Positions 23,808 to 25,117 of a stretch of 64,000 nt of DNA are shown piece after piece (within the stretch, counting starts at the first letter, position 1; each line of letters opens with the position of its first letter). The position numbers were made by a program, and so were the translations under genes. The stretch comes from Candidatus Fraserbacteria bacterium. Its GTDB lineage: Bacteria; Bipolaricaulota; Bipolaricaulia; RBG-16-55-9; DRXL01. The DNA lies in the NCBI GenBank assembly GCA_947085185.1, contig CAMTVK010000003.1, positions 128,001-192,000 on the forward strand, read 5' to 3'. A model generated the notes under the pieces. That model searched no databases. It was not told where the DNA came from and worked only from the letters and a program-made list of their open reading frames with translations.

Positions 23808-23946
23808 TGCTGTGGAGTGATTATACCCCAGAGGCAGGCTGAAGACCAAGGGGTGAGGGGGCTGTAATGGGTGCGGCATCTTTTATAATCAATGGGTGCA
23901 CCAAAACGTTCCGGTAACGATCTCTTGGCGCACTAACTAGCTGTAT

Positions 23947-23974
23947 TTGACAATCCCTGTTTTTCCAGTAAGAT
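23947..23974 (+). promoter_or_regulatory. sigma70-type promoter of infA
   Basis: TTGACA-N16-TAAGAT. Confidence 0.65.
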
Positions 23975-24007
23975 GGATGCACCCCAGCCGAAGAAGGAGG
24001 TATCATC

Positions 24008-24226
24008 ATAGCGCGCGAAGATAATCTTGTGCGACGCGACGGCATCGTCGTTGCCGCCCCCAACCATGAACTGTATAAGATTGCTTTAGGCGACGGCCAT
24101 GAGATCACAGCATACTGTTGCGGCCGGATGCGGCGCTATCGCATTCGTATTCTCGTAGGTGACCGAGTCTCCGTAGAGTTTTCGCCCTATGACGTCAGTC
24201 AAGGGCGCATCGTCTATCGCTACTGA
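24008..24226 (+). CDS. infA: translation initiation factor IF-1, probable ATA start
   Basis: GRMRRYRIRILVGDRVSVEFSPYDVSQGRIVYR; AAGGAGGT-N6-ATA gives (M)AREDN and 72 aa. Confidence 0.88.
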   Translation: MAREDNLVRRDGIVVAAPNHELYKIALGDGHEITAYCCGRMRRYRIRILVGDRVSVEFSPYDVSQGRIVYRY

Positions 24227-24248: not shown

Positions 24249-24416
24249 ATGAGAAACGTGAAGCGTGTCTTGGAACGCTATCGCGCTGGGGAGCTGTCAG
24301 TCTACGACGTCGCTCGCGCGCTCAAGATCAGCTTGCTGCACGCTGAACGTCTCATCAGCCAGATGCAGCCTATTGCTCAAAGCTCTGAATCCAAGGCCCA
24401 AGACGACAAGAGATAA
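24249..24416 (+). CDS. small HTH-like protein (55 aa)
   Basis: MRNVKRVLERYRAGELSVYDVARALKISLLHAERLISQ...; purine-rich GGAGAGAG upstream; below track cutoff. Confidence 0.55.
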   Translation: MRNVKRVLERYRAGELSVYDVARALKISLLHAERLISQMQPIAQSSESKAQDDKR

Positions 24417-24448
24417 CATCGTCACCGCCAACGATTATTCTCTAGGCT

Positions 24449-25117
24449 ATGACCGCTCACGAGAGATTCCTCCAGATCGCTCAGCGCTTGGAGAAAAGAT
24501 TCGGAAGGATCCAATGGGAAAGCCACGGCGACCCCCTCGACGTCTTAGTCTTGACAATTCTCTCGCAAAACACCAACGACCAGAATCGCGATCGAGCCTA
24601 TGAGTCGCTCAAGAGAGAGTTCCCCACCTACGAGAGCATCGTGCGCGCGCCCACCGAAAGAGTCGCCGAGGCGATCAAAGTCGGCGGGCTCCATCGTCAG
24701 AAAGCTAAGCGCATCCAAGAGATCTTACGGCGCATCAAGCGCGAGCGCGGTGAGTACGATCTGAGCTATCTCAAAGACTTAAGCACCGAAGAAGCCGTCC
24801 GAGAGCTTCTCAAATTTGACGGTGTAGGGAAGAAGACTGCCGGGGTCGTGCTCACGTTCAGCCTGAATAAGCCCTACTTCCCCGTCGACACCCATATTCA
24901 TAGAATCACCCAGCGCCTCGGACTAGTGAAGAAGCATCAAGATCCGCACGACGTGATGAACGCGCTCGTCCCGGATCACTTAAAATATCAGGTGCACTTG
25001 CACTTGATCTGGCATGGGCGCCAGACGTGCACGGCCCGCAGGCCCCGCTGCGATCAGTGCATGATCGCCGATCTGTGCCCATATCCGAAGAAATTACGCG
25101 CTAGATCTCTTAGTTAG
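24449..25117 (+). CDS. nth: endonuclease III (HhH-GPD glycosylase)
   Basis: LSQNT, GVGKKTA, PVDTH, 4Fe-4S motif C-x6-C-x2-C-x5-C. Confidence 0.9.
   Translation: MTAHERFLQIAQRLEKRFGRIQWESHGDPLDVLVLTILSQNTNDQNRDRAYESLKREFPTYESIVRAPTERVAEAIKVGGLHRQKAKRIQEILRRIKRERGEYDLSYLKDLSTEEAVRELLKFDGVGKKTAGVVLTFSLNKPYFPVDTHIHRITQRLGLVKKHQDPHDVMNALVPDHLKYQVHLHLIWHGRQTCTARRPRCDQCMIADLCPYPKKLRARSLS

Follow-up and report, generated by a model that had tools for sequence, protein, structure and literature searches.

In the window, by which we mean the whole stretch of 64,000 nucleotides of an uncultured Bipolaricaulota bacterium that was analysed, a gene for translation initiation factor IF1 (infA2) begins at an ATA codon. 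To judge from the sequence this start is real, conserved and non-canonical, and of the kind known from infC; a regulation that works through it is something we infer. It is very likely that the AUA of infA2, and the AUU of the operon copy infA1 elsewhere in the genome, both behind a strong Shine-Dalgarno (SD) sequence, are the actual start codons. The features of the window that are discussed below are the following:

23870 to 23932, no strand assigned: dispersed repeat upstream of the infA2 promoter, which the other copies in the genus do not have.
23947 to 23974, + strand: predicted sigma-70-type promoter, TTGACA-16-TAAGAT, from a scan and from conservation in the genus.
23994 to 24001, + strand: SD sequence AAGGAGGT, 6 nt before the ATA and matched to the 16S 3' end.
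24008 to 24010, + strand: ATA start codon at the Met1 position, from the alignment with IF1 chains of the PDB and concordant contigs.
24008 to 24226, + strand: infA2, standalone IF1 paralogue, 72 codons from the ATA, identified by TIGR00008, genus conservation and dN/dS.
24029 to 24031, + strand: internal GTG (Val8), the start for a plain ORF caller; found in one of eight copies and not the start.
24249 to 25117, + strand: a 55-aa ORF and an endonuclease III-like gene downstream of infA2, variable neighbours.

The earlier note on this DNA had placed an SD 6 nt before an in-frame ATA at 24008 and had read a product of 72 codons from it, and both the sequence and the IF1 alignment bear this out. 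The SD is complementary to the 16S 3' end of the same genome, and the gene ends with TGA at 24224-24226. The nearest in-frame stop on the 5' side is the TAA at 23969-23971, 13 codons from the ATA, and in the window sequence no ATG, GTG or TTG lies between the two. The spacer reads ATCATC and holds two extra in-frame ATC codons (24002 and 24005), which are unconserved among the genus copies. Residue 2 of the product pairs without a gap with residue 2 of the solved IF1 chains, so the ATA takes the position of Met1. The earlier note had also proposed to look for the ATA in reads and in relatives, and it is found in contigs of two runs and in relatives. The contigs come from X1 and X2 (depths 583 and 274), which belong to one study and of which X1 may be the source of the assembly. 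They read through the codon without a differing letter, and together with the genus copies they rule out an assembly error. A sample of 14 genomes of the genus gave 8 copies of infA2, and all 8 have the ATA as well as GGAGG at -12 to -8, with variable bases next to it.

The mean dN between these copies is 0.058 and the mean dS 0.85, which gives a dN/dS of about 0.06 (28 pairs). This estimate puts strong purifying selection on the coding sequence, and a pseudogene is ruled out by the same ratio and by the intact gene in 8/8 copies. The invariance of the ATA does not in itself support selection for AUA, since four of the five other invariant Ile columns are likewise uniform or nearly so. One Ile codon, Ile25 (24080-24082), is ATA in 7/8 copies; ATA makes up 7% of the Ile codons of the genome.

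The product scores 80.5 bits against TIGR00008 (cut-off 61.15) and 63.6 bits against PF01176 (cut-off 30.2), and its residues 2-71 align full-length, gapless or with one gap, with 9fco_I and 5lmn_W. Arg40, 42, 43, 47, 67 and 71 stand opposite Lys or Arg in 9fco_I, and G39, R42, G66, R67 and R71 are invariant in an alignment of five IF1 sequences. Among the basic residues of IF1 that bind the 30S subunit, Arg64 and Arg69 are named in PMC4611024. The earlier note had called the motif AYCCGR divergent. This does not make it a broken factor, for the Tyr is found in 5lmn_W as well and the basic residues are kept.

The suggestion that infA2 is a paralogue outside the ribosomal operon turned out to be right, as the genome has two IF1 genes. 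infA2 stands alone, divergently oriented from uvrB, infA1 lies in an adk-map-infA-rpmJ-rpsM operon, and the two products are 40% identical. Proteins of relatives are labelled Candidatus Bipolaricaulota at NCBI. A rough IF1 tree (76 rows, 68 columns, bootstrap unsettled) sets a standalone clade of 26 rows (100/97) apart from the operon copies. In five genomes of the order (L273-L277) rpmJ comes 0-99 nt after map, in an operon without infA, and the sole IF1 found in them belongs to the standalone type and starts canonically (5/5 checked); this argues that the standalone clade encodes a working IF1. A phage origin of infA2 is unsupported, the best phage matches having at most 44% identity.

The operon copy infA1 (G000:C16:15812-16024, + strand; locus L053:10813-11025) starts at ATT behind GAGGTGA. 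Across the order, 23 of the 26 operon infA loci have ATT (13) or ATC (10) at the conserved place behind the SD; they belong to the families f1 and f3 and span three and four genera, respectively. The three loci of family f4 have GTC there instead, and in two of them a GTG stands inside the SD or next to it. In 15/26 loci no canonical codon is found from the in-frame stop to the conserved core. ATT and ATC replace each other within the order, ATG never appears at this place, and in several genomes the operon copy is the only IF1 found. The NCBI protein P0013 is the product of one of these loci (L014) with Met at the ATC codon, and the annotation pipeline seems to have called this start already. 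In other orders infA was judged canonical by eye (GTG, TTG or ATG at a plausible start) in 45/45 loci, a genus-spread subset of which 40 were short and taken without operon context. These comparisons point to at least two separate gains of AUH starts (AUA, AUC or AUU) in infA within the order, ATA in the standalone gene and ATT/ATC in the operon.

Two more genes share the layout. infC (G000:C19:59459-60061, - strand) has an ATH codon behind an SD in all 30 loci read (L059-L088) from 40 matches, ATC in 29 and ATA in one, and in two of the 30 an ATG lies directly against the SD. rpsT, coding for bS20 (G000:C5:109950-110207, - strand), has ATT in 27 and ATC in 3 of the 30 order loci read (L290-L319), with an ATG or TTG abutting the SD two codons upstream in three of them. 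One locus (L346, in G249) was excluded from all counts.

A screen of the genome with a home-made gene model (1,703 predicted genes) found an SD-led canonical start for 582 genes, ATH beside a canonical codon for 28, ATH only for 24, and no SD by a strict rule for 1,069. Among the 24, an SD match of at least 7 was found for infA2, infA1, infC and rpsT only; the other 20 are raw, unvalidated calls with weaker matches. A model-free count of frames behind a strong SD gave 186 canonical, 10 ATH and 202 other, and six of the ten ATH frames were discounted by eye, either as shadow frames or because a canonical start lay in another frame. Orthologue pairs with two relatives (400 kb each) were canonical in 87 and 67 cases and flagged as non-canonical in 35 and 25; after inspection by eye only the same four genes were left. 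A candidate on contig C7 was rejected, as a TTG lies three codons past its ATC and its GGAGG apparently falls within the end of the gene upstream of it. The initiator tRNA looks ordinary, and so do the fidelity motifs of the 16S rRNA with A790 and G1338/A1339. A genome-wide lax initiation is thus unsupported by the gene screen, the model-free count, the orthologue pairs and the tRNA and 16S sequences, and as far as predicted genes can tell only a few genes of translation in this genome have ATH starts.

We consider it an even bet that infA2, infA1, infC and rpsT are gated by the IF3/IF1 checkpoint, which would tie the supply of IF1 to the stringency of initiation. As in E. coli, fMet-tRNA would pair with AUH with a mismatch in the third position, and IF3, aided by IF1, would reject the AUH 30S complexes and slow the step in which the 50S subunit docks. 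At a high ratio of factors to ribosomes the four AUH genes would be translated less, and at a low ratio more. The loop may run chiefly via IF3, holding IF1 in step, instead of being a strict autoregulation by IF1, and the AUA loop of infA2 would probably be weaker than the AUU/AUC loop of the operon copy. A feedback on infA through start-codon fidelity had been suggested in the earlier note; by analogy with E. coli it is plausible, and it gains from the fact that both infA copies, infC and rpsT all have ATH starts.

In E. coli AUU, AUC and AUA form the class of codons that IF3 discriminates, and IF1 works together with it in 30S locking and 50S docking (PMC4611024; bioRxiv 10.64898/2026.06.26.734871). 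The two factors jointly oppose non-canonical complexes (PMC4611024), and infC autoregulates its translation through an AUU/AUC start (PMC5499595). Initiation in IF3 mutants is increased 1.5-2-fold at AUA and about 5-fold at AUU (PMC9723500). In E. coli extracts from rich medium an engineered AUA-infA mRNA gave 0.95 of the output of AUG; a 10-fold excess of IF3 cut the AUA mRNA by 0-25% and the AUU mRNA by about 50-60% or more, and the AUU and AUA infA mRNAs were the ones most inhibited by ppGpp (PMC5499595). A repression of AUA mRNA by IF1 only was not found in the parts of the checkpoint literature that were covered. It should be noted that rpsT has the same ATH/SD layout, with no proofreading role evident here, and that the canonical starts of the sole standalone IF1 genes and the 6 of 14 genus genomes in which no infA2 was found mean that the loop is not essential.

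In E. coli the response of AUA to IF3 is weak and that to ppGpp strong, so two other models remain serious rivals. The first, which we hold possible and rather doubtful, postulates that a real near-cognate start sets a low and constant output of IF1 without a meaningful feedback, initiation factors being required at about 0.15 per ribosome. It agrees with the position of the operon infA among ribosomal-protein genes, with an E. coli ratio of initiation factor to ribosome of 0.12-0.15 (PMC6511841), with the frequent use of weaker canonical infA codons in other orders (GTG in f8 and f11, TTG in f9) and with the reduced output of ATA and ATT in Listeria reporters (PMC13068326). A weak SD would suffice for such a purpose, yet ATH meets the strongest SD class in all four genes, and AUH is the class which IF3 control is established to act upon in infC (PMC5499595).

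The second, which we find unlikely, postulates that the non-AUG starts selectively sensitise these genes to the inhibition of IF2 by ppGpp, so that they are the first to be shut off in starvation. The strong ppGpp response of the AUU and AUA mRNAs in extracts speaks for it, and rpsT is easier to place in a growth-rate regulon than in a proofreading loop. If the starts served starvation, one would look for them in more genes, but the other ribosomal-protein and factor genes beside infA1 have canonical starts, and the start of infB is canonical too (by eye). Such a coupling to nutrients and a gating by the checkpoint are compatible and not mutually exclusive.

A third model sees no regulatory meaning in the start of infA2: a mildly harmful change of ATG to ATA would have become fixed in a paralogue that is dispensable. 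Where infA2 has ATA, the copy of the sister genus (L040) has ATG, and 18/18 members of the standalone clade outside the genus have a canonical start, so the change was gained once, on the genus stem. This single substitution explains all 8 copies, and together with the six genus genomes in which infA2 was not found it is in favour of drift. The model is nevertheless very improbable, because infA2 is under strong purifying selection with its promoter and SD kept, no ATA has reverted over the mean dS given above, and the operon copy, the sole IF1 found in several genomes, has the trait in the three f1 and four f3 genera mentioned above. Synteny gave no ground for calling infA2 lost in G001, G005 and G013, as the nth neighbourhood is without infA2 also in three genomes whose infA2 lies at a greater distance.

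That infA2 in truth starts at a canonical codon, the GTG at 24029 or an upstream TTG or GTG, is hardly credible, even though gene callers have extended public entries (P0002-P0005) to 84-91 aa through upstream canonical codons, 4/8 copies have such an in-frame TTG or GTG, and the Pfam score is not lowered by dropping the first 7 residues (63.6 vs 64.1 bits): the GTG, which as the earlier note had pointed out has no SD, occurs in this genome only, the upstream codons sit at different places from genome to genome, lack an SD and in 3 of the 4 do not lie beyond the predicted transcription start, the N-terminal extensions are unconserved and run into stops in other copies, and two copies (L034 and L037) have no canonical codon from the upstream in-frame stop to codon 24. 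The HMM alone cannot fix the start of infA2; conservation does.

The predicted -10 box of infA2 contains the in-frame stop and the predicted leader is about 27 nt. The scan found one promoter site against 0.8 in shuffles, not significant alone; TTGACA followed 16-17 nt later by a -10-like box is present in 8/8 copies and implies a short leader. The leader gave no Rfam match, and the MFE structures of the start region showed no common fold. Downstream, the 55-aa ORF (24249-24416) adjoins infA2 in 6/8 genus copies and matches no Pfam or NCBIfam family; neither it nor the endonuclease III-like gene is part of the start-codon mechanism. The repeat at 23870-23932 has a 20-base core which occurs 20 times in this genome (with at most 2 mismatches), mostly 8-15 nt ahead of a TTGAC promoter box; 800 kb of sequence from two relatives contain it once. 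It has the look of a small, young mobile element favouring sites upstream of promoters, or of a regulator site, and is unrelated to the start codon of infA2.

A scan of GTDB with one exact pattern, covering one N-terminal type, gave 43 matches. IF1 accounted for 19 of them, 17 from Gemmatimonadota and 2 from Actinomycetes, and 18 of the 19 have no upstream canonical codon. In this set (loci L089-L131) the 17 Gemmatimonadota genomes have a near-identical IF1 with ATC or ATT at Met1 and the two Actinomycetes genes have ATA; two relatives of the latter (L217 and L230) appear to begin at ATC. In five genomes of this set that were searched whole, the ATH-start IF1 is the sole IF1 found. The trait does not extend across either group, as samples were mostly canonical: 29/29 other infA loci in an evenly drawn sample of Gemmatimonadota, 27/29 in a family sample (with one ATC, in the centre genome, and one without a call) and 23/25 readable loci among relatives of the Actinomycetes match (ATC in 2). 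Samples from Planctomycetota (29/29) and Bacillota (30/30) were canonical, as were 22/30 from Chloroflexota, where the remaining 8 gave no start call; several Chloroflexota IF1 genes (L398-L415) have long basic N-terminal extensions. Tentatively, and with less than even confidence, we extend the checkpoint model to the order as a whole, which might run a small start-stringency regulon of both infA copies, infC and rpsT, with IF1 helping to repress its own synthesis, a control that would have evolved repeatedly (twice in the order, in a Gemmatimonadota clade and in some Actinomycetes).

Among the initiation factors a feedback through the start codon is known only for IF3, and the roughly equimolar upkeep of IF1, IF2 and IF3 has been termed "not obvious" (PMC6511841). 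A natural AUH infA would be a direct and testable link from initiation stringency to the supply of IF1, and infA1 and infA2, with different codons in one genome, offer a built-in comparison. A practical effect is that gene callers lengthen or shorten IF1 proteins with AUH starts. A natural AUH start of a bacterial infA was not found in the literature, covered by titles and abstract openings and thinly for subscription papers and supplements of start surveys; each of the 60,680 Listeria genomes scored has ATG in infA (PMC13068326, Table S1).

With its 72 aa and scores above the cut-offs of both families, the infA2 product is like the canonical IF1 proteins (TIGR00008 and PF01176; 9fco_I, 5lmn_W and 1ah9_A); what sets the gene apart from canonical infA is its start codon. 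The closest parallel is infC. Both are genes of initiation factors in which an AUH codon follows a strong SD and is kept throughout a clade, and as in infC-type control the codon stands at the initiator position without a canonical alternative and in a few genes only. They differ in that IF1 supports IF3 and is not the main discriminator, in that AUH is found in two infA paralogues by separate gains and is patchy across bacteria, and in that infA2 uses AUA, the codon less sensitive to IF3 in E. coli assays, its regulation being proposed from the likeness to infC. A more distant parallel is found in eukaryotes, where eIF1, eIF5 and 5MP/BZW are controlled via start contexts that are poor or non-AUG; in function eIF1 corresponds to IF3, and IF1 is the homologue of eIF1A. 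There, too, the mRNA of a fidelity factor is a poor substrate for the very checkpoint which the factor serves, whereas the eukaryotic control, unlike that proposed for IF1, uses a scanning mechanism.
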